A DNA stretch of 64,000 bases from Candidatus Eiseniibacteriota bacterium (GCA_965224245.1 OZ245046.1:6080001-6144000), one strand, 5' to 3'. Positions 16,072 to 58,818 are shown, counted from the stretch's first letter. Notes: generated by a model from the letters alone, not told the origin. Made by a program: numbers and translations.

Positions 16072-16146
16072 TCCTCGGTAGCTCAATGGTAGAGCAAGCG
16101 GCTGTTAACCGCTAGGTTGTAGGTTCGAGTCCTACCCGGGGAGCCA
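16072..16146 (+). tRNA. tRNA-Asn (GTT)
   Basis: Cloverleaf: TCCTCGG/CCGGGGA acceptor, GCTC/GAGC D stem, AGCGG-CTGTTAA-CCGCT anticodon arm, GTAGG-TTCGAGT-CCTAC T arm, encoded CCA. Confidence 0.97.
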
Positions 16147-16177
16147 CGCTCTGGGGGCGTCTACGGGCGCCCCTTCT
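16138..16177 (+). repeat. attL-type 40-bp direct repeat (tRNA 3' end + hairpin)
   Basis: GGGGAGCCACGCTCTGGGGGCGTCTACGGGCGCCCCTTCT, identical to 47071-47110. Confidence 0.93.
16154..16177 (+). terminator. Hairpin / probable tRNA terminator
   Basis: GGGGCGTC-TACG-GGCGCCCC followed by TTCT; weak U-tract. Confidence 0.5.
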
Positions 16178-16593
16178 CGTTCACGCCCGGTTTGCCCTTC
16201 TCGTCGACCCTTCGGCCGTATATCGCGTTGGGGCGCAACGTTCTCCGGCGATTTGAAGCGCTCGAATTCTCAGCATTCTCGGCCGCTGATTGCGCCCGCG
16301 ACCGGGTTCGCAAGGCGTCCGACGTGGGCACCATGTCTCAGCATCCGCAAACCCATGGCCTGGTGGTTAACCGCCCTGGGCTCCGTTGGTCGCTCGCGGC
16401 GTCGTTCTCAGCTCCAGTTCTGTTGACACCTCCGGCCAGGCGTCACTTGAAGCGAGGCCCTCGGCATTCGGGTTTCCACGACTCCCTGCCGCGTGCCGAA
16501 TTGAACTAAACTCCTCGTCTATCGAGATCGTGAGCATTATGGATCGCCTCGCAGGCGTTCCAGGGACCGCGACTCAGCGACAGGGGCCCCTCG

Positions 16594-19422
16594 ATGCAGC
16601 GCCTCGTGTGCACAGCGCTCGCCCTGGTTCTCCTCCCGCAGACTGCCCTCGCCTCCGACGACGACATCCACTGGTTCGACGGCTTCGCGCCACCGCCCGC
16701 GGGCGAAGGACTCAACGACAAGGTGCTCGCGATGACCGAGTACGACGGTCAGCTCGTCGTGGGCGGTGACTTCACGATGGCGGGCGATCTCGCGGTGAAC
16801 TACCTGGCACAGTGGACCGGCGACGACTGGCTCGCGCTGGGCTCTGGCCCCGATGGTGTCGTCTCCGCCCTCGGCACGTGGAACGGCCAGCTCGTGATCG
16901 GCGGTGCGTTCACGTCGGCCGGCGGCGTGCCCGCGAGCAAGGTGGCCGTCTGGGATGGTGCGACATGGTCCGCGCTCGGTCTCGGGGTTGATGCGACGGT
17001 GAAAGCCATCGTCGAGTTCGAGGGCGACCTGGTCGTCGGCGGGCACTTCCTGAATGCGGGTGGCGCTCCAGCGAGCTACATCGCGCGGTGGGACGGTGTG
17101 GCCTGGAGCGAGATCGGCGGCGGGATGGACTCGCGGGTCGAGGTGCTCGCGGTCTACGACGGCGATCTCATCGCGGGCGGGCTATTCGACAACGCTGGCG
17201 GAACGCTCGTCAATCACGTCGCGCGATGGGACGGCGTCGCGTGGCAATCGATGGCGGGTGGAATGTCGGCGCGCGTGCGGGCTCTCACTGTATGGGAAGG
17301 TTCGCTGGCGGTCGGCGGCGATTTCGAGACGGCAGGTGGTGTCGCGGCGTTGCGGGTCGCGCTCTGGGACGGTGCCACGTGGTCGTCGCTCGGAGGTGGA
17401 GCAGACGATGAGGTGTTCGCGCTGGCGAGTTACAACGGGTACCTGGTCGCGGGTGGGGCCTTCCTAGACGTTGACGGCGTCTCCGCGAGCCGAGTGGCAG
17501 CCTGGAACGCGTCAGAGTGGCTCTCAATGACCACGGGCGCGGATGACGATGTCCTGTCACTGACGCGCACCAGCGGCGATCTCTATCTCGGTGGCCGTTT
17601 CGGCGTCGCAGGCAGTGCATCATCAGCATTCATCGCTCGGTGGGGCGATGCGTCGGACAAGAACCACTGGCTACCCGCCGAGTTCGCCACGTTGCAGGCC
17701 GCCATAGACTTCGCTGCGGACTACGACGACAGATTGTTGCGCGACACGCTTCGCGTTTGCGCAGGTGAGTATGGCGACGGCGCGGTAACTGACAAGGTGG
17801 TCCAGATCATTGGAAGCGGAACCGAGGTGACGTCGCTAGGCATTCTCACCTTCGTCGACAGCCGGCTCGCTGTCACGGGGAAGCGTGCCGGCAATGAGAC
17901 TCAGAACGGCGGGCACCTTGAGAGAGTCACGCTGGACGAGCTGGTGGGCGATGTGTGGAGCCTCCGAGTGGACTCCGTCGCAGTCCAAATCGTCAGCCTC
18001 GACTGCATTGACGCATACATCCATATAGGCCGGTCTGAGATTGGTTTTTGTGAGCTGAATAACTGGATCTGCCCTGATGGATACCTGACGGTTGACGAAT
18101 CTGACCTCGGCGATCTGTATCTCGATTCCTGTGGGTCGGCAACGGTCTCAAACAGCAGCGCACAAGACCTGTATGTCTATGGGGAATCGAACGCCGAGGT
18201 GAGCCGCTGCACCGCCGGACGTGCAACCGTCCGTGGATGGGCTGCGTCCGTGGGCGCCTCGACACTCGGAACTGCGGAAGTGTCTTGCCGACCGGACGGT
18301 GCAGCTAGCATTGGCGCATGCACAGTCTTCGGAGACGTAACTCTGGATGGGGATGGAGACAACACCCAAATTGACTTTGTCGCCGCTGGGGGAAACCTCA
18401 TTCTCGGGTCGCTGACGGTGGGCGGTGCCGACGAAACGTACATCGAGGGCAACACCATTGTAACGCCAATCTCCCGGCCCTACGCGGCTCGCCTGGCCGT
18501 CTCGGACTCGCCCTTCAACCGGATGACGGAGAACGTCCTGGTCGGTGGGCGAGTCGGCCTCCAAGTGACGACTGGGTCTGTGGCTCCCGAGTGCAACAAC
18601 GTATTCGGTGCGGTGGACGAGCCGTACGGCGGTCTACCTGATCTGACCGGCGTGGATGGCAACATCTCCGTAGATCCACAGTTCTGCGATGCCATCGGGG
18701 ATGACTACACGCTGGCAGAGACCTCACCATGCCTCCCCGGCAACCACCCCGACGGCTACGACTGCGGCTTGATCGGTGCCCTCGGCCAGGGGTGCGGCCC
18801 GGCCCTCGCCAATCTCGCCCCGGCGGGCTTCGTCTGCCTCCCCGACTCAGCGGCGGCCTGGGCCGATGATCCGGACAGCCTCCGGATCGGTGCCATCGTC
18901 ATCAACGACGGCAACCTCACCTCCGGCACCTTCGACGTCCGCATCGAGATCGAGGGTTGTGTCGGGTTCTGGGGCGACACGCAGATGATCGGACCGCTGA
19001 GTCCGGGTGAGGTCGATACGGTGTTCGCTGGGCCGTTCGCCGTGGAGCCCTACCAGTGCACGGTGTCGGTCTTCGTCGACTACAACGACGACGAGACCGA
19101 GTCGTCGGAGCTGGACAACGACGTCGTGGATGCGTCGGTGTGTACCGTGGTCGGCGTACCAGTAGCGCCCGAGGAGGTGACGCTGCGTGTCTGGCCGTCT
19201 CCCGCGCGGAGCATGCTGTTCATTCGAGGTGTTCCCCGGGGAGATCGAGTCAGAGTCTACGATATCGCGGGTCGTCTCATCCGCATCCTGCCGACCACTG
19301 GCGGGGGCGCGCGCTGGAACTTGCGCACCGAGAGCAGGCAGAACGTCCCAAACGGGGTCTACTTCGTCAGTGTGGATCACGCCGGGTCAAGCGACGTGAG
19401 GCGCATAGTCGTTCGTCACTAA
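16594..19422 (+). CDS. Large secreted protein: beta-propeller repeats + beta-helix + CARDB-like + CTD
   Basis: GG.F..AGG....VA.WDG..WS.LG repeats, NISVDPQFC...LIGALGQGC, VFVDY...ESSELDN, YDIAGRLI...GVYFV. Confidence 0.8.
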   Translation: MQRLVCTALALVLLPQTALASDDDIHWFDGFAPPPAGEGLNDKVLAMTEYDGQLVVGGDFTMAGDLAVNYLAQWTGDDWLALGSGPDGVVSALGTWNGQLVIGGAFTSAGGVPASKVAVWDGATWSALGLGVDATVKAIVEFEGDLVVGGHFLNAGGAPASYIARWDGVAWSEIGGGMDSRVEVLAVYDGDLIAGGLFDNAGGTLVNHVARWDGVAWQSMAGGMSARVRALTVWEGSLAVGGDFETAGGVAALRVALWDGATWSSLGGGADDEVFALASYNGYLVAGGAFLDVDGVSASRVAAWNASEWLSMTTGADDDVLSLTRTSGDLYLGGRFGVAGSASSAFIARWGDASDKNHWLPAEFATLQAAIDFAADYDDRLLRDTLRVCAGEYGDGAVTDKVVQIIGSGTEVTSLGILTFVDSRLAVTGKRAGNETQNGGHLERVTLDELVGDVWSLRVDSVAVQIVSLDCIDAYIHIGRSEIGFCELNNWICPDGYLTVDESDLGDLYLDSCGSATVSNSSAQDLYVYGESNAEVSRCTAGRATVRGWAASVGASTLGTAEVSCRPDGAASIGACTVFGDVTLDGDGDNTQIDFVAAGGNLILGSLTVGGADETYIEGNTIVTPISRPYAARLAVSDSPFNRMTENVLVGGRVGLQVTTGSVAPECNNVFGAVDEPYGGLPDLTGVDGNISVDPQFCDAIGDDYTLAETSPCLPGNHPDGYDCGLIGALGQGCGPALANLAPAGFVCLPDSAAAWADDPDSLRIGAIVINDGNLTSGTFDVRIEIEGCVGFWGDTQMIGPLSPGEVDTVFAGPFAVEPYQCTVSVFVDYNDDETESSELDNDVVDASVCTVVGVPVAPEEVTLRVWPSPARSMLFIRGVPRGDRVRVYDIAGRLIRILPTTGGGARWNLRTESRQNVPNGVYFVSVDHAGSSDVRRIVVRH

Positions 19423-20922: not shown

Positions 20923-21858
20923 GTGTCAGAGCAGGGCTATGTAGCACTTACCGACCCGGACTGGTATAGGCATCTTCTGTCTCAAACGCGGGTCGACGAG
21001 GTCAACTTCTGGCAGCCGCGTGGCAATCGATCATTCCGTGCCTTGAGCAGCGGACAACCGTTCTTCTTCAAGCTGCGAGCACCCCAGAAGCAGATCGCTG
21101 GGTTCGGGTTCTTCGAACGTTTCGAGGCGCTTCCGGCGTGGCTGGCCTGGGAGTGTTTCGGAGAGATGAATGGAGCTGGTAGTTTCGAGGAGATGGTCGA
21201 GCGTATCCTCAAGCTGCGTGGCGAGGGGTCGCAAACCGGGGACTTCGTCATCGGATGCGTGATGATCAAAGCACCGGTCTTGTTCGAGCAGACGGATTGG
21301 GTCGAGCCGCCAAAGGACTGGGCGCGCACGGGGATTCAGCAGGGCAAGAGGTACGCACTGGACTCGCCGGAAGGAGAACGTGTCTTTCGCGAGTGCCTGG
21401 AGCGCGCAAGCGCCGGCACGCGTTACTGGAATGTCGATCGCGTAGCGGAGGAATCGCCGAGATACGGTGCACAGGTGGAGGTGCGGCCACGGCTCGGTCA
21501 GGGACTGTTCAGCCTCGCCGTTCGAGACGCGTACAAGGGGGCATGCGCCGTCACGCGGGAGCACTCTGGCCCCGTCCTGGAGGCTGCCCACATAGTCCCG
21601 TACAGTCGTGGAGGACAACACAACGTTCGCAACGGGCTGTTGCTCAGAAGCGATCTCCATCGGCTGTATGACCGCGGCTACGTCACTGTTACGCCGGACC
21701 ATGAGTTCGTCGTGGGGCGTCGCCTTCGAGACGACTTCAACAACGGTAGAAGCTACTACTCATTGAATGGTGTACAGGTCTCGACGCCGGATGAGGCGCA
21801 ATGGCGCCCGAATCCGGAACACCTCGAATGGCACGTGAGCGAGGTGTTTCGCGGCTAG
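20923..21858 (+). CDS. HNH endonuclease (putative restriction enzyme)
   Basis: RPRLGQGLF..AVRDAY...CAVT...LEAAHI...NGLLLRSDLHRLYDRG...LEWH; N-terminal EVNFWQP domain. Confidence 0.88.
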   Translation: MSEQGYVALTDPDWYRHLLSQTRVDEVNFWQPRGNRSFRALSSGQPFFFKLRAPQKQIAGFGFFERFEALPAWLAWECFGEMNGAGSFEEMVERILKLRGEGSQTGDFVIGCVMIKAPVLFEQTDWVEPPKDWARTGIQQGKRYALDSPEGERVFRECLERASAGTRYWNVDRVAEESPRYGAQVEVRPRLGQGLFSLAVRDAYKGACAVTREHSGPVLEAAHIVPYSRGGQHNVRNGLLLRSDLHRLYDRGYVTVTPDHEFVVGRRLRDDFNNGRSYYSLNGVQVSTPDEAQWRPNPEHLEWHVSEVFRG

Positions 21859-21944
21859 GTTGGTTGTCGTGAGGGCGTCACGAGATGTCATCTGCGCGGT
21901 CTCGGCGCGAAGGGTGGTTCCACGAGGACATCAGACGGAGGGGG

Positions 21945-22586
21945 ATGATGAAGATCGTACCCGGTGCTGGCGTACTCGCCTTGCTTGTCATGGCGGCGTC
22001 GACGCACGCAGGTCGAGTCGACTGGCAATCCGAGTCGGGCATCATCGCGTACGCCAGCGGAGCATACCTAGATCGGGCGGGGAACCTCTGGCAGATACAT
22101 GATGGAGGGGGCAGCGGCTGGGACTGGTATCCGAGAGATGTGCCTGGTGGGGGTGAGTGGCCCGTCCCGATCTCGGAGATAGAGTGGTGGGGCTTCTGGT
22201 CGCTGGTTACAAGGGACGGTGGGGGTTGGGCAGCAAACGAGGATGAGTGGTTCTTCGTCGGGAATCTGCCAGGCTCTCCCGTGGGGGTCATTCATGCTTC
22301 CGAACGTAGCCCTGACGCCATGGCACGTCCCAACCCATTTGCCCAGTCGACGATTCTGGAGTTTGAGACGAGCCATGCGCTGAACGACGCACGTGTTGAA
22401 CTCTACAGCGTCGATGGTCGTCGAGTGCACGAGATCGTGATTGGAGACGTGGAGATAGAGCAGTTCTCCATTGCGTGGGACGGACGAGACGGGAATGGAT
22501 TGCAGTTGGAGCCGGGAGTCTACTTGGCGACGCTAAGCTCAAGAGGTGGAGTCGAAATGACGATCAAGATCACCTACTCACCGTGA
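21945..22586 (+). CDS. Secreted protein with FlgD/T9SS-like CTD
   Basis: Signal peptide; PNPF, YSVDGRRV, WDGRD, PGVY. Confidence 0.75.
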   Translation: MMKIVPGAGVLALLVMAASTHAGRVDWQSESGIIAYASGAYLDRAGNLWQIHDGGGSGWDWYPRDVPGGGEWPVPISEIEWWGFWSLVTRDGGGWAANEDEWFFVGNLPGSPVGVIHASERSPDAMARPNPFAQSTILEFETSHALNDARVELYSVDGRRVHEIVIGDVEIEQFSIAWDGRDGNGLQLEPGVYLATLSSRGGVEMTIKITYSP

Positions 22587-23138
22587 GCGAGTGTGGGGCC
22601 TCGTGTTTCGCAAGATCAGCTTCGCAGCCACATGGGCGACGTCGTTCTCGTAGCCGGCTGATGCCGTGGACATCAGTCGCTCGCAGATCCAATCCTCGTC
22701 AAACAACTGCCAACGTTGTGCGCCAAAGTGCATGCGGAGTCCCTCGCGATCGGTGACGCGAGCAACATTTCCTGCGGCCAGGCAGAGAGTGACACGCGGT
22801 GATCGACGGCAGGCACCGCTTGCCACGAGCTGCTCCTGGAGCCTGGCCAAAACGACATCTCGGAGCTTGTCGTCGGTGAAGAGCTTGTACCGAGTCGGCG
22901 GCTCGAACGATCCGTTCCGGAACACGACACCCCGAGAGTCGAGATAGGACTTGCACTCGACGACGAGGACCTCGTTCTTGGCTCCCTTGTAGGCGAGAAC
23001 GTCTAGTTCCCATCGAGGGGAGCTGTGCCGACCGATCGCTTGCTTGTCGTCCTTCGTCAACGCGACGCGGAAACTGGTCGTCGTCCAGTAGCCGTCCCGC
23101 TTCAGCAGGAGCGCGATCAGCGTCTCGAATGCATCCAC
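22578..23138 (-). CDS. PD-(D/E)XK restriction-endonuclease-like protein
   Basis: GGAGG + GTG; DAFE...ELDVLAY...VVECKSY. Confidence 0.7.
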   Translation of the reverse strand: MDAFETLIALLLKRDGYWTTTSFRVALTKDDKQAIGRHSSPRWELDVLAYKGAKNEVLVVECKSYLDSRGVVFRNGSFEPPTRYKLFTDDKLRDVVLARLQEQLVASGACRRSPRVTLCLAAGNVARVTDREGLRMHFGAQRWQLFDEDWICERLMSTASAGYENDVAHVAAKLILRNTRPHTRSR

Positions 23139-23269
23139 GATCCCTCCTCGGGTCGGCCTTTCAGATAGCAGTTCGCGCGGCTGGAGTCGAGGACTTGGAG
23201 ACAATGATGAAGAGAGAAACCCGGCGCACCCGCACCGGGCTATCGAGACTCACGATGTCGCCCGCTCGA

Positions 23270-23884
23270 TCAGTCGCCGCTGACCATCTCCCTCAACATC
23301 CCCGCCTGCCGCTCCAACCTCTCCGCGATCTCGACGAGCCTCGGCGCCCGACCGAAGACGAGGTTCCCCGGCGCGAACGGCAGCGTCTCCTCCTCGCCCG
23401 ACCACGGCTCGACGTATCGCACGTAGACGAGGTCGCAGCCCTGGAAGCCCATGCCGCGCTCGACGCGCTCGACGGTGCCGACGATGTGGCTGGCGTCTTC
23501 GCGATGCGGGTTGTGGCGGATCATGACCTTGTCGCCGGGGTTCACGTCGGATCTCCTTTCGGTGGTTCGCGGTGGCGCGGGGCGAGACCCACCGCCGAGC
23601 GACTCGGTCACCGCCTCTCGCTCCGTCGAGCCGAGGTGTTCCATCGGTGCCAGCCGGTTCCCCGACCAGGCGTAGACTGCCTTCGCCCCAGCGTCGACCC
23701 GATCGACCCAGTTCACCGCGTTGCTGAAGGAGAACACCGAGAACGGCCGAGGCGTCGCCCCACCTCGTCGCTCCCGACACGCGGCGAGAACGGCACGCCC
23801 GACCTCCATGGCCAGGCGCTCGTCGGACTCGTTTGCGTTGCGAACGGCGTCTTCGTAGATCCAGAGCACGTGCGCGTATCCCAT
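23270..23884 (-). CDS. Hypothetical protein (possibly two fused small genes; internal RBS + GTG at 23545)
   Basis: GGAGG before 23884 and AAAGGAG before 23545 in the same frame. Confidence 0.55.
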   Translation of the reverse strand: MGYAHVLWIYEDAVRNANESDERLAMEVGRAVLAACRERRGGATPRPFSVFSFSNAVNWVDRVDAGAKAVYAWSGNRLAPMEHLGSTEREAVTESLGGGSRPAPPRTTERRSDVNPGDKVMIRHNPHREDASHIVGTVERVERGMGFQGCDLVYVRYVEPWSGEEETLPFAPGNLVFGRAPRLVEIAERLERQAGMLREMVSGD

Positions 23885-23893
23885 GGTGGCCTC

Positions 23894-24493
23894 CTACTTG
23901 AGCGCGGCGCGTAGACGGTTCGCCAATGAGCCCGCCTTGTTTCCGACGACCTCGCGCGGACCAAGGTGCCGATCGGTGTAGTCCAACGCCGCCTTGTTGA
24001 TCGAGACCTTGATCAGCTCGGGGTTCAGCACCTCCTCGGTGTCCGGCCGCCCCTTGATCGCGACCTTCACGCTCTTGCCACTCTTCTCGACGAGGAACGT
24101 CACGCGCTCGGCGACGTTGGTGGCGCGCCCTCCGGTGAACTCACAGGGGACGCCGGCCTTCTTGCACGCGTCTCGGTAGGGGCCGAGGACGTCTCGGAAG
24201 TGCGCCTTGGCGTCGGCGATGAGGGTGTTCGCCTCGCCTCGGAGCGTGGCGGCCTCGGCCTGCATCTCTCGGACGTTCCGCTCGGCGTCGACGACGGCGG
24301 TGCGGAGCGCGTCGAGGTCGGGGGTGGCCGTGTCGCGCGTCGTCGCGGGCGGTGTCGGCGTTTCGGCGGCCGGTGGGGCCTCGGGGGCCTTCTTCGTCCG
24401 GGCCTTCGCCGTGCGGCCTGATCTCGCCCCGGTGCCGCCCGTGGTCGCCTTCGTCGCCTTCGTCTTCCTCGGAGCCGTCTTCTTCGTCGCCAT
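23894..24493 (-). CDS. Hypothetical protein with Lys/Thr/Ala-rich basic N-terminus and coiled coil
   Basis: GAGGAGG + MATKKTAPRKTKATKA... Confidence 0.7.
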   Translation of the reverse strand: MATKKTAPRKTKATKATTGGTGARSGRTAKARTKKAPEAPPAAETPTPPATTRDTATPDLDALRTAVVDAERNVREMQAEAATLRGEANTLIADAKAHFRDVLGPYRDACKKAGVPCEFTGGRATNVAERVTFLVEKSGKSVKVAIKGRPDTEEVLNPELIKVSINKAALDYTDRHLGPREVVGNKAGSLANRLRAALK

Positions 24494-24545
24494 CTCGTCC
24501 TCCTCGGCTGTGTCGCAGGCGCGGCGGATTGCGCGCCACTGCGAC

Positions 24546-24579
24546 ACATGCACGCTCGAGCCTGGCGAGGTCATCAAGT
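24546..24579 (-). promoter_or_regulatory. Conserved upstream motif ACTTGAT-N15-GAGCGTGCATGT
   Basis: Near-identical architecture at 28770-28802, upstream of the other leftward operon. Confidence 0.55.
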
Positions 24580-24907
24580 CATTTCAGGGGAATAAGTTAG
24601 CTTGATTTGGCGCCCATCGGAGCGAACCATGTGGGGAGCGATGAGGGCTGGAAAGCTCCCGGCGTCGCGGGGCCCGGACGCTGGGGGCGGCGTGAGGCAC
24701 TGCTTGCCATGGCGAGCGGTTGGGCGAGGGAAGCGGTGACATCCGGACACCACGACGCCCCCGACGACGCGCTCTGACGCGCCGGGGGGGCGGGGTATCT
24801 GGTTCCCCACGCCGATGAGGTGATGCGGAAGCGAAGGTGCAGAGCGCTGATGCTTGGGGAACGCGGGGACAGTACCACACGTCGTCGCGCGAGCGAGTTA
24901 GGAGAGC

Positions 24908-25504
24908 ATGAGGATGCCATATCGTGCCCCCGAGACCATGACCACCGCCGAGCAGCGACGGCTCCTCGACGTCAGCGCCGAGAGCCCACGCCCACGCGAT
25001 CACGTGATGATCTCGCTTGCACTCGGCACCGGGCTTCGGCTCGGCGAGCTGCTCGCGCTCGACGTAGGCGACGTCAGCCCCGATGGCGTCCACGTACGCA
25101 CCCGCGTGAAGCTGCGCGTCGAGACGACCAAAGGCTCGCGCAAGGGCGAGGTGTTTCTGCCCGATCGGGTCGTCGAGAAGCTGACGCGGTTCCTGGCGTG
25201 GAAGTCGATGATGGGGGAGTCGCTCGATGGCGACGCGCCGTTGTTCATCTCATCGTGGGGGAGACGGTTGTCGGCGAGGCGGACGCAGATGATGTTTCAT
25301 GGATGGCAGCGCAGAGCCGGTTTTGATCGACTGTACAACTGGCACTGCACCAGGCATTCGGCTATTTCCAACGTCTACCGAGCGTCTCGGGACCTCTTCC
25401 TCGCCCAGCGGTTCGCTCGCCACGCGTCACCCCTCACCACCATCATCTACACCCACGTATCGGATGAGGAGATGGCGGAGAGAGTGAAGGAGCTGCCGTG
25501 TTGA
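24908..25504 (+). CDS. Tyrosine recombinase, catalytic domain only
   Basis: RD...TGLRLGELL, TKG, HCTRHS, ARH.S..TT.IYTH; only 198 aa. Confidence 0.9.
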   Translation: MRMPYRAPETMTTAEQRRLLDVSAESPRPRDHVMISLALGTGLRLGELLALDVGDVSPDGVHVRTRVKLRVETTKGSRKGEVFLPDRVVEKLTRFLAWKSMMGESLDGDAPLFISSWGRRLSARRTQMMFHGWQRRAGFDRLYNWHCTRHSAISNVYRASRDLFLAQRFARHASPLTTIIYTHVSDEEMAERVKELPC

Positions 25505-25625
25505 CGTGGGTTGCGGTCGTCATGGTTGGCACGCTCGCGGCCCTCTGAGTCTCGACGCGCGTTCCGGCGGGAACTGTCGTAGCGTTCCATGCGGTTTCCT
25601 CGCGGAAGTCGCCGGTGTGGACTGC

Positions 25626-26273: not shown

Positions 26274-26371
26274 GGTTCGGATCTACAACGCTCCTCACAT
26301 CGATCTGGTGGAGGCGGCAGCATAGCAAAGGGCCAGGGTAGGGACATTCTGGGGCACGAAAGCGGCAGCGG

Positions 26372-28248: not shown

Positions 28249-28250
28249 GG

Positions 28251-47073: not shown

Positions 47074-47110
47074 GAGCCACGCTCTGGGGGCGTCTACGGG
47101 CGCCCCTTCT
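47071..47110 (+). repeat. attR of element 1 / left att of element 2
   Basis: 40-bp identity to 16138-16177, followed by >200 bp homologous to 16178-16400. Confidence 0.92.
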
Positions 47111-47344
47111 TGTTGACTCTTCCTCACGCCTCTCTCGCCACCCCGAGGCCGTATATCGCGTTGGGGTGCAACGTTCTCCAGCGATATCCAGGCGTCGGAG
47201 TCTCAGCACCCTCGCGCGCTTCTATCCCCTCGCCGGGGGTTCGCCGGGCGTCCGACGTGGGCGGCAATTCTCAGCATCTGCGTAACCGTTCGGGCATCCC
47301 ATCCGGGTGATCAGCCCGTGTCCCGGCGCGCTGTCGGGTGAGGC

Positions 47345-48958: not shown

Positions 48959-48970
48959 GCACTCTTTGAA

Positions 48971-49351
48971 TCACATCGTCGCGCGCCAGGCAAGTCCCTT
49001 CTTCGGCGACCAGCGACTCCGGCGCTGGGAGCCGCGAAGATCGATCCCATCCAGGAGCAACGTCAGCTCCGACGACTCGATCTCGACGTGCGAGGACCCG
49101 ACCTCGGGGTGGCGCGGGAGCGTGAAGCGGCCGCGTTCGAGGCGCTTGTAGACGAGGAGATAGCCCGAGGGCTGCCAGACGAGGATCTTCATCCGGTTCG
49201 CGCGCCGGTTGATGAACACGAACAGGTGTCCCGAGAGGGGATCGGCGGAGATGATCTCGCGCGTGGCCGCCGAGAGCCCGTCGAAGCCCTTGCGGAGATC
49301 GACGGGCTCAGCGGCGATGTAGATGCGCACGGTGTGCGGCAGGGTCAGCAC
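48971..49351 (-). CDS. tnpB: IS66 accessory protein
   Basis: PVDLRKGFDGL, LFVFINRR, KRLERGRF, LLLDGID. Confidence 0.95.
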   Translation of the reverse strand: MLTLPHTVRIYIAAEPVDLRKGFDGLSAATREIISADPLSGHLFVFINRRANRMKILVWQPSGYLLVYKRLERGRFTLPRHPEVGSSHVEIESSELTLLLDGIDLRGSQRRSRWSPKKGLAWRATM

Positions 49352-49701
49352 GGATCGAGCGCCTCGATGAGCTCGTGTAGCAGCGTGCGATCGAAGCCGC
49401 GGCGGACGACGATCCGGTGGCGCTGCCCGACGATGAGCTCGATACCGGCGTCGGAGTCGGCCACGTCGGCGTCAGCCGTCTCCACGATCTCGACCGGGTG
49501 GAAGCGGGGGCTGCCGTCGGCCTCGAGCTTGGACTTCCAGCGGCGCAGTCGCGACACACTGAGGCCACACTGTCGCGCAAAGGCGTTCAGTGTGAGCCCA
49601 CTCTGGCTCCAGATGGCAAGTGCGCGTTCCGCGTCCGACTCCCGCCAGTAGCGGTTGTCGGAGATCGGGGCGAGCGCGGTCGTGATCGACTTCGAGAGCA
49701 T
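49345..49701 (-). CDS. tnpA: IS66 TnpA HTH protein
   Basis: SGLT..AFARQCGLS...L.RWK; position in IS66. Confidence 0.85.
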   Translation of the reverse strand: MLSKSITTALAPISDNRYWRESDAERALAIWSQSGLTLNAFARQCGLSVSRLRRWKSKLEADGSPRFHPVEIVETADADVADSDAGIELIVGQRHRIVVRRGFDRTLLHELIEALDPC

Positions 49702-50129
49702 GCGGCACCTCCTCGGGTGCGCACGTTCTCAGGACCGGCCGATGGGCTCAACATGGGTTCACCGAACGGATACGCATCTGCGAACCGGCAGCCCCGTTGT
49801 TGACACCGCCGCCGTAACCCGTTGGTACGCCTTGAGCCGATTGCGGCTTTCCGCGACTCGCACGGAACGTGTTGAAGACGCGATCGAGGTGCCACGCGCT
49901 CCGGATTGAGCATCACCGGTCACGTGTGGCTATGTGCACGCATTTTGGAGAGGGACAGGGACGATCACGATTCGTTGTGGCCGTTTTCGCGGCCGATCTG
50001 CGCGTACTGGATGTTCGGCACTTCGGGCCGCGCACTTTCGCCGCACGCGGAGTGCCGCGCGTTCCCTCACCAGTTTGGCCCAGGGGCGGTATCGCGCGTC
50101 CTCGTCGGCCGCGCTGTTCCCGGGAGGTG

Positions 50130-50757: not shown

Positions 50758-53700
50758 GTGCTGCGCATCTCGATCGGGCCGGGACGAACGCCGCTACAGC
50801 TGCTGCTCATCGTCCTCCTCGGATCGGGGGGGCCGGCCGCCGCACAGACCTTCGTGGACGTCACGAACAGCGCACTCGTTGACTGGGGGTATGGCCTGGG
50901 TGCGGCGTGGGGGGACTACGACGACGACGGCGATCTCGACCTCTACGTCCTCAACGGCGGATCTGACCCAAACCGTCTGCTTCGCAACGACGGCGGGACG
51001 TGGGCGGTGGTCACCAGCGGTCCTCTCGGCGACACGGGCTCCGGAGCTGGCATGGCCTGGGGGGATTACGACAACGATGGTGATCTCGACCTCTACGTCG
51101 AGAACTGGGACTCGTCGAACAAGCTGTTCCGCAACGACGGCGGGACGTGGGCGGACGCCACCAGCGGTCCACTCGGCGATGTCGAGGGAGGTACCACGGC
51201 CTGGGGGGACTACGACAACGACGGGGACCTCGACCTCTACGCGGCGCGGAACGTTGGGCCGTCCAAGTTGATCCGCAATGACGGTGCGACGTGGGTGGAT
51301 GTCACGACCGACCCGCTGGGCGACACGAGGAGCAATGGCTTCGTGGCGTGGGGGGATTACGACAACGACGGGGACCTCGATCTCTGCGTCAACGGCGACT
51401 ACCCCGCAAGCCCCAGGCAGTTCCGCAACGACGGCGGGGCATGGGTGCTCGTGACACTCCCGACGTCGCACGCGGATTGTGTAGCGTCAGGCGACTACGA
51501 CAACGACGGGGACCTCGACCTCTATCTCGGGAGAACCTACGACACACTGCTCCGCAACGACGGTGGTACGTGGGCGGATGCCACCAGCGACCCGATCGGC
51601 TACCTTCCGTCAGATGCAGCATGTGCGGCCTGGGGGGACTATGACAACGACGGGGACCTCGACCTCTGCGTCGCCAACCGCGGCCTCGGCTCCCAAGAGG
51701 AACACAACCTGTTCCGCAACGACGCCGGAACCTGGGTGGACGTGGCCGGTGGCCAGCTCGGCGGCGAATATGATCAGGGCTTTGGCGTGGCCTGGGGGGA
51801 CTATGACAACGACGGGGACCTCGACCTCTACATCGTCAACTACGAGGGATGGAACAAGCTCTTCCGGAACGAGGTGGGGAGCAAGAACCACTGGCTGCAG
51901 GTGAAGCTCCAGGGCACGGTGTCCAACTCGGCGGGGATCGGAGCACAGGTCCGGCTGACGGCGGGGGGCATCACGCAGATCCGCGAGCTCTCGGGTGGCT
52001 CGGGCCGGTCGCAGGATGCGCTCATCGCGAGCTTCGGACTGGGCGCCACGTCGACGATCGATCAGCTCGAGGTGATCTGGCCGAGCGGGCTCGTGCAGGT
52101 CGTGAGTCCGCCGCCGACCATGGACGAGAGGATCACGGTGGTGGAAGCGCCGCCCTTCACGGACGTCACGAACGACCCGCTGGACCACGCCGGGCAGAGT
52201 CGGGGTGTCGCGTGGGGGGACTACGACGATGACGGGGACCTCGATCTCTACCTCGCGAACAACGGCTCGGCGAACAAGCTGTTCCGCAACGATGGCGGGA
52301 CGTGGGTGGATGCCACGAGCGGCCCGGTCGGCGATACGAATCGGGGCATTGGTGTGGCGTGGGGGGACTATGACGATGACGGGGACCTCGACCTCTACCT
52401 CGCGAACGACGGCTCGGCGAACAAGCTGTTCCGCAACGATGGCGGGACGTGGGTGGATGCCACGAGCGGCCCGGTCGCCGACACGGGCGATGGCCGGGCC
52501 GTGGCCTGGGGCGACTACGACAACGACGGCGACCTCGATCTCTACCTCGCCAACTTCGGCTCGGCGAACAGGCTCTTCCGCAACGACGGCGGGGTATGGG
52601 TGGACGTCACGAACGATCCGCTCGACGACGCCGGGCAGAGTCGGGGTGTCGCGTGGGGGGACTACGACGATGACGGGGACCTCGATCTCTACCTCGCGAA
52701 CAACGGCACGGCCAACAAGCTGTTCCGCAACGATGGCGGGACGTGGGTGGATGCCACGAGCGGCCCGCTCGGCGATACGGGTCCAGCATCCGGTGTGGCG
52801 TGGGGGGACTTCGACAACGATGAGGACCTCGACCTCTACCTCGCCAACCACGGGGAGGCGAACCGCCTGTTCCGTAACGATGGCGGGATGTGGGTGGATG
52901 CCACGAGCGGCCCGCTCGGCGACACGAACGGGGGCCTTGGTGTGGCGTGGGGGGACTACGACAACGACGCCGACCTCGATCTCTACCTCGCGAACAACGG
53001 CGCTGCGAACAAGCTCTTCCGCAACGATGACGGGACGTGGGTGGATGCCACGAGCGGACCGTTCGACGACACGGGGCTCGGCCAGAGTGTGGCGTGGGGG
53101 GACTACGACGAGGACGGAGATCTCGACCTCTACCTTGCCAACTCCAATTCGGCCAACAAGCTGTTCCGTAACGAGGTGGGGAGCGAGAACCACTGGCTCC
53201 AGGTGAAGCTGCGGGGGACCGTGTCCAACTCGGCCGGGATCGGCGCACGGGTCCGTCTGACGGCCGGGGGCGTCACGCAGATCCGTGAGCTCTCCGGTGG
53301 CTCGGGATACCTGTCGCAGGATGCTCTGACCGCGAGCTTCGGGCTGGGCGCCACGACGGTGATCGATCAGCTCGAGGTGGTTTGGCCGAGCGGGTTCGTG
53401 CAGGTGGTGAGCCCGCCGCCGGCGGTCGACGGGACCCTCACGGTGGTGGAGGATCTGCTCTTCACGGATGTCACGAGCGGCCCACTCGGTGACACGGGGC
53501 AGGGCCAGGGCGTGGCGTGGGGAGACTATGACGACGACGGGGACCTCGACTGCTACGTGGGCAACTATGGTCAGGCGAACAAGCTCTTTCGCAACGACGC
53601 GGGAGCCTGGGTGGACGCCACGAGCGGTCCGCTGGGTGACACGGGCAACGTGCGCGGCGTGGCCTGGGGGGACTACGACGACGACGGGGATCTCGACCTC

Positions 53701-56700
53701 TACGTCGCGAACAACGGCTCGGCGAACCGGCTGTTCCGCAACGACGGCGGAAGCTGGGTGGATGCCGCCACCGGCCCGCTCGCCGATGCGGGCCCCGGCG
53801 CTGGCGTGGCGTGGGGCGACTACGACAACGACGGGGATCTCGACCTCTACCTCGCCAACTTCAGCTCGGCGAACAAGCTCTTCCGCAACGACGGCGGCAC
53901 GTGGGTGGACGCGACCAGCGGTCCGCTCGGCAGCACTGCCGCGTCCTACGGGGTCGCGTGGGGCGACTACGACGGCGACGGAGACCTCGACCTCTACGTC
54001 TCGAACAACGGCACGGCCAACAAGCTCTTCCGCAACGACGCGGGCACGTGGGTGGACGCCACCAGCGGACCCCTGGGCAACGCGGGGCAGGGCCGGGGTG
54101 TGGCGTGGGGCGACTACGACAACGACGGGGACCTCGACCTCTACCTCGCCAACTTCAGCTCGGCGAACAAGCTCTTCCGCAACGACGTCGGGACGTGGGT
54201 GGACGCCACCAGCGGTCCGCTCGGAGACGCCGGTGGGGGCTTCGGCGTGGCATGGGGAGACCACGACAACGACGGGGACCTCGATCTCTATCTCGCGAAC
54301 TGGAACTCGGCGAACAGGCTCTTCCGCAACGACGATGGCACGTGGGTGGATGCCACGAGCCCTTCACTCGGCGATACGGGTCCGGGCCGAGGCGTGGCAT
54401 GGGGAGACCACGACGACGACGGCGACCTCGACCTCTACCTCGTCAACTACGGAGAGGCCAACAAGCTCTTCCGGAACGAGGTGGGGATCGAGAATCACTG
54501 GCTGCGGGTGAAGCTCCAGGGCACGGTGTCAAACTCTTACGGGATCGGCGCGCGGGTCCGGGTGACGGCGGGGGGCATCACACAGGTGCGCGAGCTGTCG
54601 GGTGGCTCGGGCTGGCTGTCGCAGGACGCGCCGAGCGCGAGCTTCGGGCTAGGTGCCTCGACGACGATCGATCAGCTCGAGGTGGTCTGGCCGAGCGGGC
54701 TGGTCCAGGTCGTCAGCCCACCGCCGACCGTCGACGGGATGATCACGGTGGTGGAAGACATCCCCTTCACCGACGCCACGAGCGCCCCGCTCGGGGACAC
54801 GGGGCAAGGCTATGGCGTGGCCTGGGGGGACTACGACGACGACGGCGACCTCGACGTCTATGTCGCCAACTACGCTTCCGCGAACAAGCTCTTCCGTAAC
54901 GACGGTGCAACGTGGGTGGATGCCACGAGCGGTCCACTCGGTGACACGGGCCCCGGCCGGGGGGTGGCCTGGGCAGACGCCGACAACGATGGGGATCTCG
55001 ACCTCTACCTCGCGAACGCCGGCACGGCGAACAAGCTGTTCCGCAACGATGGCGGGACGTGGGTGGACGCCACCGGCGGTCCACTCGGTGACTCGGGTAA
55101 CGGTCTTGGCGTGGCGTGGGGGGATTACGATAACGACGGCGACCTCGACCTCTATCTCGCGAACGGTACCACGGCGAACAAGCTGTTCCGCAACGACGGT
55201 GGAGCCTGGGTGGACGCCACGAGCGGCCCCCTCGGTGACTCTGGTCGTGGTCACTGCGTGGCGTGGGGAGACTACGACGACGACGGTGACCTCGACCTCT
55301 ATCTCACCAACATCGGGGAACCGAACAAGCTGTTCCGCAACGACGGTGGAGCATGGGTGGATGCCACGAGCGGCCTCCTCGGCGACTCGGGGATCGGCTA
55401 TGGCGTGGCCTGGGGGGACTACGACAATGACGGCGACGTTGATCTCTACGTTGTCAATTTCGATTCGGCTAACAAGCTCTTCCGCAACGATGACGGGACA
55501 TGGGTGGACGTCACTAGCGGTCCCCTCGGTGACGCGGGTGGCCGGGGTGTGGCGTGGGGGGACTATGACAACGATGGGGACCTCGACCTCTACGTCACCA
55601 GCGTGCATGCGGCGAACCGGCTGCTCCGCAACGATGGTGGAACGTGGGCAGATGTCACGAGTGGTCCTGTCGGTGATGTGGCCAGTGCCGGAGGCGTTGC
55701 ATGGGGGGACTATGACAACGATGGGGATGTCGATCTCTACCTCGCCAACGTGAGCACTGGGAACAAGCTCTTGCAGAACGAGGTGGGGAGCGAGAACCAC
55801 TGGCTGCAGGTCAGGCTCCAGGGGACGGTGTCGAACCGGGCGGGCATCGGAGCGCGGGTCCGGGTGACGGCGGGAGGCACCACACAGACGCGCGAGCTGT
55901 CGGGTGGCTCGGGCTACCTGTCGCAGGATGCGCTCATCGCGAGCTTCGGACTGGGCGCCACGTCGACGATCGATCAGCTCGATGTGACCTGGCCGGGCGG
56001 GCTCGTGCAGGTCGTGAGTCCGCCGCCGACCGTGGACGAGAGGATTACGGTGGTGGAAGCACCACCTTTCACGGACGTCACGAACGACCCGCTCGGCGAC
56101 GCCGGCTCGGGTCGGGGTGTGGCATGGGGGGACTACGACGACGACGGTGACCTCGATCTCTACCTCGTGAACAACGGCACGGCAAACAAGCTGTTCCGCA
56201 ACGACGGCGAAACGTGGGTGGAAGCCACGAGCGGCCCGCTCGGGGACACGGGCCTTGGACGAGGCGCGGCGTGGAGTGACGAGGACAACGACGGTGACCT
56301 GGACCTCTACCTCGCCAACTACAATTCCGCGAACAAGCTGTTCCGCAACGATGGCGGGATGTGGGTCGATGCCACGAGTGGTCCGCTCGGCGACACGGGA
56401 AACGGCTTTGGCGTGGCGTGGGGGGATTACGACAACGACGGGGATGTCGACCTCTATCTTGCCAACTACAACTCGGCGAACAAGCTGTTCCGCAACGACG
56501 GGGGGGTGTGGGTGGACGCGACGAGCGACCCGCTCGGCGACACCGACGGCCGGGGTGTGGCGTGGGGGGACTACGACGGCGACGGCGATCTCGACCTTTA
56601 CGTCGCCAACAACGGCACGGCGAACCAGCTGTTCCGCAATGACGGCGGCGCGTGGGTGGATGCCACCTCGAGCCCGCTGGACGACACAGGGTTTGGCCGG

Positions 56701-57672
56701 GGCGCGGCGTGGGCGGACTACGACAGCGACGGCGATCTTGATCTCTACCTCACCAACTACGAGTCACCAAACAAGCTGTTCCGCAACGACGGCGGAGCCT
56801 GGGTGGACGCCACCAGCGGTCCGCTGGGCGACACGGGTGGGGGCTTTGGCGTGGCGTGGGGCGACTACGACAACGATGGGGATGTCGACCTCTACCTCGC
56901 CAACGACGGTTCGGCCAACAAGCTGTTCCGCAACGACGGTGGGACGTGGGCGGAGGCCACGAGCGCTCCACTCGACGACACGGGGCAGGGCTATGGCGTG
57001 GCGTGGGGAGACTGCGATGACGATGGGGATCTCGACCTCTACCTCGTCAACTCCAGCTCGACCAACAGGCTCTTCCGCAACGAGGTGGGGAACGAGAACC
57101 ACTGGCTGCAGGTGAAGCTCCAGGGGACGGCGTCCAACCGGGCGGGCATCGGTGCGCGGGTCAGACTCACCGCGGGAGGCACCACGCAGCTCCGCGAGCT
57201 GTCGGGTGGCTCGGGCTACCTGTCGCAGGATGCCCTCACCGCGAGCTTCGGCCTCGGCTCCACGACGACGATCGACCAGCTCGAGGTGAGCTGGCCGAGC
57301 GGGATCCTGCAGGAGGTCGATCCCCCCGGTGTCGACCAGAAGATCACGGTCATCGAAGCGGATCTGCTCGGGGTGTTCCCCTTGACGATGCCGCGGCACA
57401 TCGTGCTCCATCCCGCCGCGCCGAATCCCTTCTCGGGCACGACGAGCATCCGCTACGACCTCCCCCGCCGGTCGAACGTCCACCTGCGGCTGTATGACGT
57501 GACGGGGCGTCTGCTGCGCGTGCTGGAGAGCTCCCCGCGGAGCGCGGGACGGCACGTGTCGGTGTGGGACGGCACGGACCGCGCCGGCGCGAAGGCGGCG
57601 CCAGGCGTGTACTTCTATCGACTGGAGACGGACGACTTCGGGGCCACGCGACGCGTCATGAGACTACGGTGA
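50758..57672 (+). CDS. Giant secreted protein: 5x (7 FG-GAP blades + ASPIC/UnbV), CRTAC1-like, + FlgD CTD
   Basis: ~35 AWGDYDNDGDLDLY repeats; five NHWL.V.L.G..SN..GIGA.V modules; PNPF...WDGTD...GVYFYRL. Confidence 0.93.
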   Translation: MLRISIGPGRTPLQLLLIVLLGSGGPAAAQTFVDVTNSALVDWGYGLGAAWGDYDDDGDLDLYVLNGGSDPNRLLRNDGGTWAVVTSGPLGDTGSGAGMAWGDYDNDGDLDLYVENWDSSNKLFRNDGGTWADATSGPLGDVEGGTTAWGDYDNDGDLDLYAARNVGPSKLIRNDGATWVDVTTDPLGDTRSNGFVAWGDYDNDGDLDLCVNGDYPASPRQFRNDGGAWVLVTLPTSHADCVASGDYDNDGDLDLYLGRTYDTLLRNDGGTWADATSDPIGYLPSDAACAAWGDYDNDGDLDLCVANRGLGSQEEHNLFRNDAGTWVDVAGGQLGGEYDQGFGVAWGDYDNDGDLDLYIVNYEGWNKLFRNEVGSKNHWLQVKLQGTVSNSAGIGAQVRLTAGGITQIRELSGGSGRSQDALIASFGLGATSTIDQLEVIWPSGLVQVVSPPPTMDERITVVEAPPFTDVTNDPLDHAGQSRGVAWGDYDDDGDLDLYLANNGSANKLFRNDGGTWVDATSGPVGDTNRGIGVAWGDYDDDGDLDLYLANDGSANKLFRNDGGTWVDATSGPVADTGDGRAVAWGDYDNDGDLDLYLANFGSANRLFRNDGGVWVDVTNDPLDDAGQSRGVAWGDYDDDGDLDLYLANNGTANKLFRNDGGTWVDATSGPLGDTGPASGVAWGDFDNDEDLDLYLANHGEANRLFRNDGGMWVDATSGPLGDTNGGLGVAWGDYDNDADLDLYLANNGAANKLFRNDDGTWVDATSGPFDDTGLGQSVAWGDYDEDGDLDLYLANSNSANKLFRNEVGSENHWLQVKLRGTVSNSAGIGARVRLTAGGVTQIRELSGGSGYLSQDALTASFGLGATTVIDQLEVVWPSGFVQVVSPPPAVDGTLTVVEDLLFTDVTSGPLGDTGQGQGVAWGDYDDDGDLDCYVGNYGQANKLFRNDAGAWVDATSGPLGDTGNVRGVAWGDYDDDGDLDLYVANNGSANRLFRNDGGSWVDAATGPLADAGPGAGVAWGDYDNDGDLDLYLANFSSANKLFRNDGGTWVDATSGPLGSTAASYGVAWGDYDGDGDLDLYVSNNGTANKLFRNDAGTWVDATSGPLGNAGQGRGVAWGDYDNDGDLDLYLANFSSANKLFRNDVGTWVDATSGPLGDAGGGFGVAWGDHDNDGDLDLYLANWNSANRLFRNDDGTWVDATSPSLGDTGPGRGVAWGDHDDDGDLDLYLVNYGEANKLFRNEVGIENHWLRVKLQGTVSNSYGIGARVRVTAGGITQVRELSGGSGWLSQDAPSASFGLGASTTIDQLEVVWPSGLVQVVSPPPTVDGMITVVEDIPFTDATSAPLGDTGQGYGVAWGDYDDDGDLDVYVANYASANKLFRNDGATWVDATSGPLGDTGPGRGVAWADADNDGDLDLYLANAGTANKLFRNDGGTWVDATGGPLGDSGNGLGVAWGDYDNDGDLDLYLANGTTANKLFRNDGGAWVDATSGPLGDSGRGHCVAWGDYDDDGDLDLYLTNIGEPNKLFRNDGGAWVDATSGLLGDSGIGYGVAWGDYDNDGDVDLYVVNFDSANKLFRNDDGTWVDVTSGPLGDAGGRGVAWGDYDNDGDLDLYVTSVHAANRLLRNDGGTWADVTSGPVGDVASAGGVAWGDYDNDGDVDLYLANVSTGNKLLQNEVGSENHWLQVRLQGTVSNRAGIGARVRVTAGGTTQTRELSGGSGYLSQDALIASFGLGATSTIDQLDVTWPGGLVQVVSPPPTVDERITVVEAPPFTDVTNDPLGDAGSGRGVAWGDYDDDGDLDLYLVNNGTANKLFRNDGETWVEATSGPLGDTGLGRGAAWSDEDNDGDLDLYLANYNSANKLFRNDGGMWVDATSGPLGDTGNGFGVAWGDYDNDGDVDLYLANYNSANKLFRNDGGVWVDATSDPLGDTDGRGVAWGDYDGDGDLDLYVANNGTANQLFRNDGGAWVDATSSPLDDTGFGRGAAWADYDSDGDLDLYLTNYESPNKLFRNDGGAWVDATSGPLGDTGGGFGVAWGDYDNDGDVDLYLANDGSANKLFRNDGGTWAEATSAPLDDTGQGYGVAWGDCDDDGDLDLYLVNSSSTNRLFRNEVGNENHWLQVKLQGTASNRAGIGARVRLTAGGTTQLRELSGGSGYLSQDALTASFGLGSTTTIDQLEVSWPSGILQEVDPPGVDQKITVIEADLLGVFPLTMPRHIVLHPAAPNPFSGTTSIRYDLPRRSNVHLRLYDVTGRLLRVLESSPRSAGRHVSVWDGTDRAGAKAAPGVYFYRLETDDFGATRRVMRLR

Positions 57673-57849
57673 TGACTCGACGTGGCTGCGCCTGCGGGTG
57701 GCCCGCGTGAGGTCCCAATGAACGGGACCGGGGCCGCAACGTCAGCTGCCGCTCGAACTCGTGGTGTCCGTAAATTGGCAACGAACCCGGCGGGCTGCCC
57801 AAGTTCCACGACCGGAGGGTCGCGTGAGGTCGTTCGAGTCTTCGGACAC

Positions 57850-58137
57850 TACACCGAGGCGCTGGACGCATCACGACGGGCGATCCGCGAGGGCGAGGTG
57901 CTGCTCCCACGCCGGGGACCGGTGGTCGAGGCGTTCGCCACGCAGCTCGCGAACGATGCCAAGCGGCTCCTGGAGGACGAGGAGACGGGGGCGCAGAGCT
58001 ATCGGTACGTGAAGCTCGGGACCAACCACTACTCGCTGGCCTGGACCTACTGGCTGGCGATCGATCGCCTGGTGGTGTGGCCCACGCTGGATCGGCGGTT
58101 CATCCGTCGTCGACCGCGCCCCCGGCTGCCGCGGTGA
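57850..58137 (+). pseudogene. C-terminal remnant of GpA-type terminase large subunit
   Basis: TEALDASRRAIREGEVLLPRR...EDEETGAQSYRYV.LGTNH aligns with 39295-39546. Confidence 0.85.
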
Positions 58138-58818
58138 TGGCCGTGCTGACGGGGTCGGGGAGAGCGCTCTCCCGAGGTGCCGAAACCGGTCACGACGGGC
58201 GTTCCGAACGCTCGAAACGGTCCTCACGCGCGTGTGAAACGTCCGAACCGTGACGCGGGAGGGGGCATCGATGCCCGAACGCGGACGCGGCGTGCCCTCG
58301 ATCGGCCCCTTCGAGACGCGACGGGCCGACCCGCCCGATCCTGTAACGCTTTGACACATGGACAGGTGGGGAGTTCAGGTCCTTCGGCGGTGCCCGGCGA
58401 CGGTGTGATTTGGTCGTGAAACCTGCCCCAAACCTGCCCCTTGGCCTGGAATCCGGCCCCTGGACGGCCACACAGGCGGTGTGTCGTACTCCGACACGGA
58501 AACGATTATGTGGCTGTGAGTTACGGCTGTCTTGGGTTGCCCGATCCCTCGACGATGCAGCGACGCTGGACGGGGCTCCTGGGTCTGGGCAGGAAGGTGG
58601 AATGATGCAGTCGCATCATTGCGAGCGCCTCATTCCGAGTCCGGCCCGGACACTGGATTGGAGGACGAGATGGCTTTCTGGACCCGGCAGACGCGGGGGG
58701 CGTCCCCGCCCGTGACGTCAGACGTGGGCGAGGTGACGAAGCCGGAGCGTCTCGACACAAACCAAGAGGCGATCCCTCCCAACCCGAGAGAATCGCCTCT
58801 TGACAGGGTCATTCCATA

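Follow-up and report, generated by a model that had tools for sequence, protein, structure and literature searches.

Packaging genes at the tRNA-Asn locus

We analyzed a 64,000-nt stretch of the chromosome of a Candidatus Eiseniibacteriota bacterium (G000:C1:6080001-6144000, hereafter the window; positions given without a contig name count from its first letter). It belongs to a 6.94-Mb assembly made up of one 6.45-Mb contig (69% G+C) and 26 small contigs (57-66% G+C). A preliminary description had proposed that two capsid-less integrative elements, both encoding a terminase, stand here in tandem at a tRNA-Asn gene. The sole tRNA-Asn (GTT) gene of the whole genome maps to 16072-16146 (plus strand; ARAGORN; Rfam 71.7 bits), and a 40-nt att repeat that spans its final 9 nt and a G+C-rich hairpin is present at 16138-16177 and, without a mismatch, at 47071-47110 (both plus strand). 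We refer to the interval between the two att copies as element 1 and to what lies behind the second copy as element 2. Genes were called with a codon-usage script, their starts being approximate, and were annotated with Pfam and PHROGs.

Element 1 contains a ~13.5-kb segment (26372-39877, copy 1) that corresponds to the core recurring in related genomes. At its left edge three genes lie on the minus strand: rec109, which encodes a small protein (phrog_14161 'recombinase'; 26372-26701) and whose stop codon marks the left limit of the conserved core; a large serine recombinase gene (Resolvase, Recombinase and Zn_ribbon_recom; 26698-28248), with all three expected domains present (PF00239, 2e-40; PF07508, 2e-13; PF13408, 8e-14); and a gene for a DUF2924 protein, the usual partner of a serine recombinase (28251-28739). 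The remaining genes are on the plus strand. They comprise a 255-aa open reading frame (ORF) unique to copy 1 (29361-30128), for which the fold model was uninformative (mean pLDDT 42), an extracytoplasmic function (ECF)-sigma-like regulator (30343-30975), a replication module with AAA_24 (Sak4-like), DUF669, ERCC4 nuclease, Prim-Pol and D5 helicase genes (31538-35413), a D12-class N6-adenine DNA methyltransferase (MTase; 35646-36776), a ParB-like gene in two ORFs (36882-37451), a remnant of a gene for a TerS-like small terminase subunit (37759-37977), and a gene for a GpA-type large terminase subunit (TerL) in five pieces and three frames (38105-39546). A conserved end block follows TerL (39613-39877, plus strand), with an end motif at 39854-39877. 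Pfam and PHROGs matched nothing in element 1 to a portal, capsid, tail, lysis or conjugation family, as the preliminary description had stated.

The earlier gene list for element 1 was mostly right, except that ParB, TerS and TerL read as broken. The ParB ORFs encode 99 and 82 aa, compared with 219-228 aa in sister copies of the same genome, and the TerS remnant 72 aa, compared with 183 aa. TerL matches phrog_675 as its five pieces (38105-39513) and has no open reading frame in the assembly; a single fragment scored only 21.1 bits with the GpA_ATPase model (cut-off 25.6). When region 36800-39300 was aligned to sister contigs C9, C5 and C2, we counted 21 insertions (17 of a single base) against just 2 internal deletions. 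Such an insertion-biased spectrum is unusual for natural decay, and consensus error may explain part of it. Contigs from public sequencing runs, which are possibly the assembly's own source, agree with the assembly at 37229, 37249 and 37513, and at 38796-38816 the sole contigs lack the inserted letters.

Behind the second att copy, a 3' remnant of TerL (57853-58050, plus strand) covers residues 437-502 of 519 at 68% identity, and its end block (58472-58525, plus strand) carries an end motif at 58492-58515. When twelve core proteins were searched by tblastn against 46000-120000, only an orf227 fragment was found besides this remnant. The non-coding block after TerL is common to both copies (39834-39887 and 58472-58525, 84% identical). 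Hence the earlier statement that TerL is followed by the same block in both copies stands as far as the block is concerned, with the second TerL reduced to a fragment; the statement that both elements encode a terminase does not stand, with TerS and TerL reading as broken in copy 1 and no terminase gene in the second. Element 2 is best described as a stub. A 94-nt 'tRNA-Arg' (CCG) that ARAGORN called at 58169-58262, inside the end block of the remnant, had no Rfam tRNA match and is probably spurious.

The core and its terminase in related genomes

Many small contigs of the same genome are diverged copies of the element (70-94% nucleotide identity), and C5, C9 and C11 bear open TerL genes of 519-547 aa. 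With the C5 TerL as query, relatives at 50% identity or more were found in 21 of the 206 genomes of the phylum, distributed over 17 of its 83 genera. An alignment of the TerL copies was then used against IMG/VR and a named genome collection. In the collection, 41 loci were recovered, in genomes titled Candidatus Eisenbacteria and Acidobacteriota (Polarisedimenticolia, Thermoanaerobaculia and Terriglobia), together with one 'Proteobacteria' metagenome-assembled genome and one 35%-identical phage-like locus from Armatimonadia. In IMG/VR, 25 loci were among the matches listed, 8 of them with a best segment at 59-64% identity. Most loci keep an open TerL of 519-574 aa.

These loci share a ~13-kb core composed of DUF2924, the serine recombinase and rec109 (in either orientation), regulators, a variable replication module, and the genes MTase-ParB-TerS-TerL, whose synteny is kept across the family. 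The replication module differs by copy, being PrimPol-D5, DnaB plus RepO, DUF3987, or DUF3854/DUF927. Two copies within one genome have modules alone in common; homology stops at the TerL stop codon, and TerL is the last conserved gene of the family. The end motif behind it was found at 8 places of the genome, always in the same orientation relative to TerL, and no inverted copy was detected at the opposite end of the core with up to 4 mismatches allowed. Contig C9 shares the right flank of copy 1 and carries a TIR gene between TerL and the end motif, and is thus an alternative, intact version at the same site with a different replication module.

Within the replication module of copy 1, the Prim-Pol (33186-33686, 166 aa) and D5 helicase (33674-35413, 579 aa) genes lie in different frames and overlap by 13 nt. 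The same split is present in sister copies C11 and C22, and a single fused gene in C5, C27 and most relatives; the arrangement may reflect either a conserved split of the gene or programmed frameshifting. On another small contig, C7 (33.8 kb), the genes at 3-12190 are repeated in order at 21299-33504, and the contig resembles a ~21.3-kb circular replicon that was assembled 1.6 times over.

Intact TerL genes gave ratios of nonsynonymous to synonymous substitution rates (dN/dS) of 0.12-0.30 in nine of nine pairs, which points to purifying selection. Their products scored 79-95 bits with GpA_ATPase (PF05876; 94.6 bits for C5), well above the cut-off that the copy 1 fragment missed, and aligned to positions 18-550 of the 576 of phrog_675. 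A sequence search of the PDB with TerL gave no match.

Downstream of TerL we examined every ORF of at least 100 aa with a start no more than 7 kb away, 146 in total, at the 25 loci whose flank measured 2 kb or more. Locus L145 (35% identical) was set apart as an outgroup, and another fifteen loci were excluded because their flank was too short or no TerL ORF had been called. At none of the 25 loci did any of the 146 ORFs match a head-and-packaging or connector PHROG at E ≤ 1e-5. Weak 'tail' matches were confined to four ORFs at three loci, all of them repeat-rich cargo proteins, and a small tyrosine recombinase gene follows TerL at 12 of the 25 loci. At TerL identities of 25-45%, a phage portal gene stands straight after TerL (L075, E 1e-96; L079, 2e-16; L087, 1e-82), followed in L075 by a protease and a major head protein gene. 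The preliminary description had proposed to tabulate what follows TerL in relatives, and had named portal or capsid genes there, if consistently present in intact relatives, as grounds for giving up its idea. The idea withstood this check: neither gene was matched after TerL at any of the 25 close loci, and phages that have both there appear only at 45% identity or below.

It had also proposed a structural search for HK97 or portal folds. The largest conserved protein of unassigned function (446 aa), folded with 37 aligned sequences, contains a confidently predicted alpha/beta domain (pLDDT near 90 over residues 110-300). Foldseek returned no match at E ≤ 0.001 in the PDB or BFVD; the best rows listed were weak thioredoxin-like folds, and neither a capsid nor a portal was among the matches listed, in line with that expectation. 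ORFs of 420-700 aa in a slot upstream of the MTase gene of relatives were considered as hidden structural genes and rejected as probably spurious antisense ORFs. The codon-usage caller places 3-4 small opposite-strand genes there, their Atlas scores are just 0.81, and one of them had no match among 5.8 billion proteins.

Anti-phage defence genes are often found after TerL. The TIR gene of C9 belongs to PDC-S35; type I restriction-modification and DarT/DarG genes follow TerL in L114, and type IIG restriction-modification genes in L115, L138 and L135, with further, weaker defence matches elsewhere. In L114 (= L066; 12834-21544), DarT/DarG is nested between the type I restriction-modification genes.

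Att repeats, recombinases and the surrounding island

An exact 40-nt repeat within 64 kb is far above chance, and the ~220 nt downstream of each att copy are 78% identical (16129-16348 and 47062-47281), so that both the repeat and the left-end homology of more than 200 bp reported in the preliminary description were recovered. The left-end block proper (16178-16370, plus strand) recurs at 47111-47288 and at four other places of the genome, one lying 49 kb past the end of the window and one each on C23, C11 and C3; every copy precedes an FG-GAP or beta-propeller (secreted-protein) gene. A right-end block of the att-to-att unit (46795-47070, plus strand) is 75% identical to C23:4729-5007. We also observed a 17-nt motif (GTTCGCNRGGCGTCCGA), a candidate arm site for a recombinase, at 16306, 46996 and 47239. 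Its copies are directly oriented, flanking the att core at 47071 on either side and following the one at 16138; because the pattern was derived from these very sites, it is weak evidence. A degenerate att core in the flank after the end motif was considered and rejected, as its alignment scores were equalled by 40-294 of 300 shuffles.

In another genus, contig G026:C29 has the same layout of tRNA-Asn, cargo, core, small tyrosine recombinase and cargo, with a 96-nt direct repeat 29.5 kb apart. ARAGORN found no tRNA within ~20 kb at nine of the ten relatives' loci scanned, and the link to tRNA-Asn thus holds at 2 of 11 loci, that of the window included. It is not the 31-kb att-to-att unit that is conserved: across genomes, the ~13-kb modular core recurs together with the small tyrosine recombinase.

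In element 1 this recombinase, TyrInt198 (24908-25504, plus strand), is a 198-aa protein that amounts to a bare catalytic domain in which the catalytic residues are conserved. Next to it lies orf227 (23894-24577, minus strand), which has no assigned function and also neighbours the small tyrosine recombinase in sister copies. Across both phyla the recombinase measures ~195 aa (194-212 aa), and its gene is often convergent with TerL within a few bases (e.g., L117:11620-12204). The residues R-K-HxxR-H/W-Y are invariant in nine of nine aligned sequences, and we presume for them the roles that they have in the tyrosine recombinase family. The Pfam catalytic domain covers residues 8-187, leaving no N-terminal core-binding or arm-binding domain; the size is reminiscent of FimB/FimE-type invertases. 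Long direct repeats at tRNA genes are typical of tyrosine integrases, not of serine integrases.

The rest of element 1 consists of cargo and insertion sequences (IS). Between the tRNA gene and orf227 lie genes for a 942-aa beta-propeller/CARDB protein with a type IX secretion system (T9SS)-type C-terminal sorting domain (16594-19422, plus strand), for an HNH_2 endonuclease-domain protein (20923-21858, plus strand; PADLOC HNH model, E 7e-17) and for a FlgD-Ig protein. An HlyIII-family membrane protein gene (25626-26273, minus strand) separates TyrInt198 from the core. To the right of the end block there is an N-terminally truncated IS66 transposase gene (40872-42212, minus strand), followed by genes for an S8 peptidase-domain protein and a 565-aa FG-GAP repeat protein (42720-46585, plus strand).

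Behind the second att copy, a complete IS66 of three genes (47281-49778, minus strand) is repeated with 99.9% identity at two other chromosomal sites; part of it is also found on contig C10, and it looks recently active. It is followed by a gene for a 2304-aa FG-GAP/ASPIC repeat protein (50758-57672, plus strand), in which 147-nt units (at least 28 copies) lie within a 1302-nt super-repeat that is present five times. From the tRNA-Asn gene onward, dense secreted-protein genes of the FG-GAP/beta-propeller type, with T9SS-type or FlgD-Ig tails, extend for at least 170 kb amid IS copies, and one cluster of these island proteins counts 57 members, spread over this region and the small contigs. An Rfam scan of 15500-59500 returned nothing beyond the tRNA.

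A proposed satellite-like family and its alternatives

We propose, with slightly more than even confidence, that the core defines a family of satellite-like elements that bring their own complete terminase, represented in the window by one worn copy and one stub within a tRNA-Asn cargo island. On this view, a large island of secreted FG-GAP/beta-propeller genes, linked to tRNA-Asn, begins with the interval; the worn copy (26372-39877) is embedded in it and the stub lies further on. An intact member would comprise (a) the module of DUF2924, large serine recombinase and small protein; (b) regulators and a swappable replication module; (c) the MTase-ParB-TerS-TerL operon, with TerL last; and (d) the ~195-aa tyrosine recombinase at one edge and a cargo slot behind TerL. 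Such an element would excise and replicate on its own, its complete terminase would cut and translocate element DNA, and procapsids and tails would be supplied by a helper phage. Provirus calls of 17 kb in IMG/VR, which extend from the serine recombinase to TerL or the TyrInt198 homolog, fit such a unit. The view that the missing head module is a design feature, as the preliminary description suggested, is supported for the family by the lack of head genes among the ORFs after TerL and by the dN/dS ratios, and does not extend to the two worn window copies. It is not likely that either of these is now mobile by packaging.

A further possibility is that packaging starts at the TerS/TerL end and runs outward, in which case the post-TerL slot, filled by defence genes in relatives and by hypervariable secreted FG-GAP genes in the window, and the adjacent island would enter hijacked capsids first and the element would act as a dedicated driver of lateral transduction for the cargo island, shared by Eisenbacteria and Acidobacteriota; we regard this extension as quite improbable.

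Several observations weigh against a packaged satellite. No helper phage was identified. Genome-wide, matches to the HK97 capsid and portal families were confined to contig C17, and the lambda-type portal family matched nothing. C17 was rejected as a helper: it has its own TerL of another family, and its portal is 25% identical to the portals of the phages with the nearest TerL. A C17-like portal was present in 5 of the phylum's 206 genomes; the 20 element-bearing genomes other than this one all lack it. Neither a circle junction nor an empty site or a packaged form was seen in the fragmented public-run contigs and the IMG/VR records, and the relatives are filed in IMG/VR under provirus or linear, not under circular. 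In the window, copy 1 has packaging genes that seem inactivated, and neither copy appears intact. TerS was weakly recognized (Terminase_5, E 1e-3, at or below the cut-off), and the nuclease domain PF20454 was not detected in the family TerL by Pfam, although the phrog_675 match reaches position 550 and Asp/Glu columns are invariant in the C-terminal half. No conserved non-coding left end of the core was found, homology starting at the rec109 stop codon.

Contig C17 itself (38.4 kb) reads as a complete tailed phage; its genes include a TerL of the Terminase_6C family, a fusion of portal and Mu F domain, a 492-aa ORF with the HK97-type capsid and a 1722-aa ORF as long as a tape measure. As to excision, the core was found in four public runs (two samples, one study), none of them recorded as RNA. 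The contigs on 23000-42999 were short, and all 14 joints had just 20-23 letters on one side, which is evidence neither for nor against excision or an empty site.

The same loci could be decayed prophages, the remains of a tailed prophage that inserted here as well as in the relatives, lost its structural genes and left the terminase without a present role. In the window, the broken ParB, TerS and TerL of copy 1, the 200-nt TerL stub of the second copy with IS66 inserted, and the complete and truncated IS66 inside the interval all speak for decay. The related IMG/VR records, the 17-kb provirus calls included, have a CheckV completeness of 21-39%. The portal and capsid genes right after TerL in the nearest phages of this TerL type also fit, and suggest that the terminase module descends from a phage. 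Independent decay, however, would not yield one break point at 25 of 25 loci in two phyla, would not hold TerL under the constraint measured or keep it open in most loci, and would not swap replication modules yet preserve the packaging operon. Decay is true of both window copies as individuals, not of the family, for which we consider it improbable. If, instead, the terminase module had a non-packaging role, such as defence by interfering with the packaging of invading phages, or the processing of replication products, the element would move by other means. The clustering of defence genes beside TerL in relatives, the lack of a helper or capsid partner and the nuclease domain that Pfam does not recognize are what such a role would predict. 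The order MTase-ParB-TerS-TerL, with TerS and TerL overlapping, is nevertheless that of related phages; TerL matches nearly all of phrog_675 and has conserved acidic residues in the C-terminal half of the alignment; and no conjugation or other transfer gene was found by Pfam and PHROGs among the element genes of the window copy and its relatives. We regard a non-packaging role as very improbable.

A different question is what the mobile unit is. The whole att-to-att island (16138-47071) might be what the small tyrosine recombinase mobilizes, forming tandem stacks, with the terminase core as a nested passenger or a recombining module, somewhat like the tycheposons that Hackl and colleagues are said to have described in 2023, which are reportedly tRNA-linked tandem cargo islands with repeated att sites, a tyrosine recombinase and niche-specific cargo. 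By that account, tycheposons and the present locus have in common these features and insertion at the 3' end of a tRNA gene; what sets the Eisenbacteria element apart is a complete terminase module and a large serine recombinase. The 40-nt direct repeat with the tRNA 3' end, the equivalent layout and 96-nt repeat in G026:C29, the conservation of both ends (the left-end block at six places, the right-end block in C23) and the 17-nt motif flanking the att core are consistent with movement of the whole island. So are TyrInt198, which keeps all catalytic residues and accompanies the element in both phyla, and the secreted-protein gene always present behind the left-end block. Conversely, TyrInt198 has no N-terminal DNA-binding domain, the tRNA-Asn link holds at just 2 of 11 loci, and copies within one genome share modules only, not a whole unit. 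Movement of the whole island appears unlikely, and it can coexist with the satellite reading.

We then compared the proposed satellite family with known systems. The four families of SatelliteFinder (P4-like, phage-inducible chromosomal islands (PICI), capsid-forming PICI (cfPICI) and PLE) redirect the terminase of the helper or bring a terminase together with a capsid, and terL, head-tail adaptor and connector are the markers that split cfPICI from PICI, according to the SatelliteFinder paper (PMC10085698). A PICI of the SaPI type, as modelled there, resembles the present family in its ~13-17 kb integrative core, integrase, regulators, own primase/replicase and TerS, and also in the lack of virion genes, a slot for defence cargo and presumed helper dependence. 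The integrase, regulator and primase-replicase that a PICI holds within ~10-20 kb are represented in the window by the large serine recombinase, the sigma-like regulator and PrimPol/D5 in the 13.5-kb core. A PICI has TerS without TerL (PMC10085698), whereas the Eisenbacteria family carries a complete TerL. For an integrase the family has, moreover, a large serine recombinase accompanied by DUF2924 and, in addition, a minimal tyrosine recombinase. We found no gene for capsid remodelling in the family; its hosts are Eisenbacteria and Acidobacteriota, and it is known here from its genes.

Elements of the cfPICI type share TerS and TerL with the family and package their own DNA, as the family is predicted to do from its genes, but they are defined by capsid, head-tail adaptor and connector genes, none of which was matched in the family (PMC10085698). 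On the definitions given in that paper (PMC10085698), the family is neither a PICI nor a cfPICI. Portal, major capsid, tail and lysis genes, as an intact tailed prophage would hold, were not matched within the element. The tailed phages with a GpA-type terminase in IMG/VR (L075, L079 and L087) resemble the family in their TerL (25-45% identical, phrog_675/GpA_ATPase) and in the position of TerS upstream of it, and differ in what follows TerL, namely portal, protease and major head genes in the phages and cargo or a recombinase in the family. In literature searches, mainly of listings and abstracts, we encountered neither a satellite family with a complete terminase and no capsid nor any work on mobile elements of Eisenbacteria; a negative from the library searched does not by itself prove absence from print.

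For the window itself the meaning is more modest: a worn copy and a stub in a very large, IS-ridden island of surface-protein genes. If the satellite interpretation is correct, (i) a conserved family with a complete terminase but no shell would represent a third strategy for capsid piracy; (ii) satellites would extend to Eisenbacteria and Acidobacteriota, uncultivated phyla of soil and sediment for which the literature searches returned none; and (iii) the calls of virus-finding pipelines, which treat these loci as proviruses that are 20-40% complete, would be explained. Since the post-TerL slot carries defence systems, these elements may move anti-phage genes across phyla.

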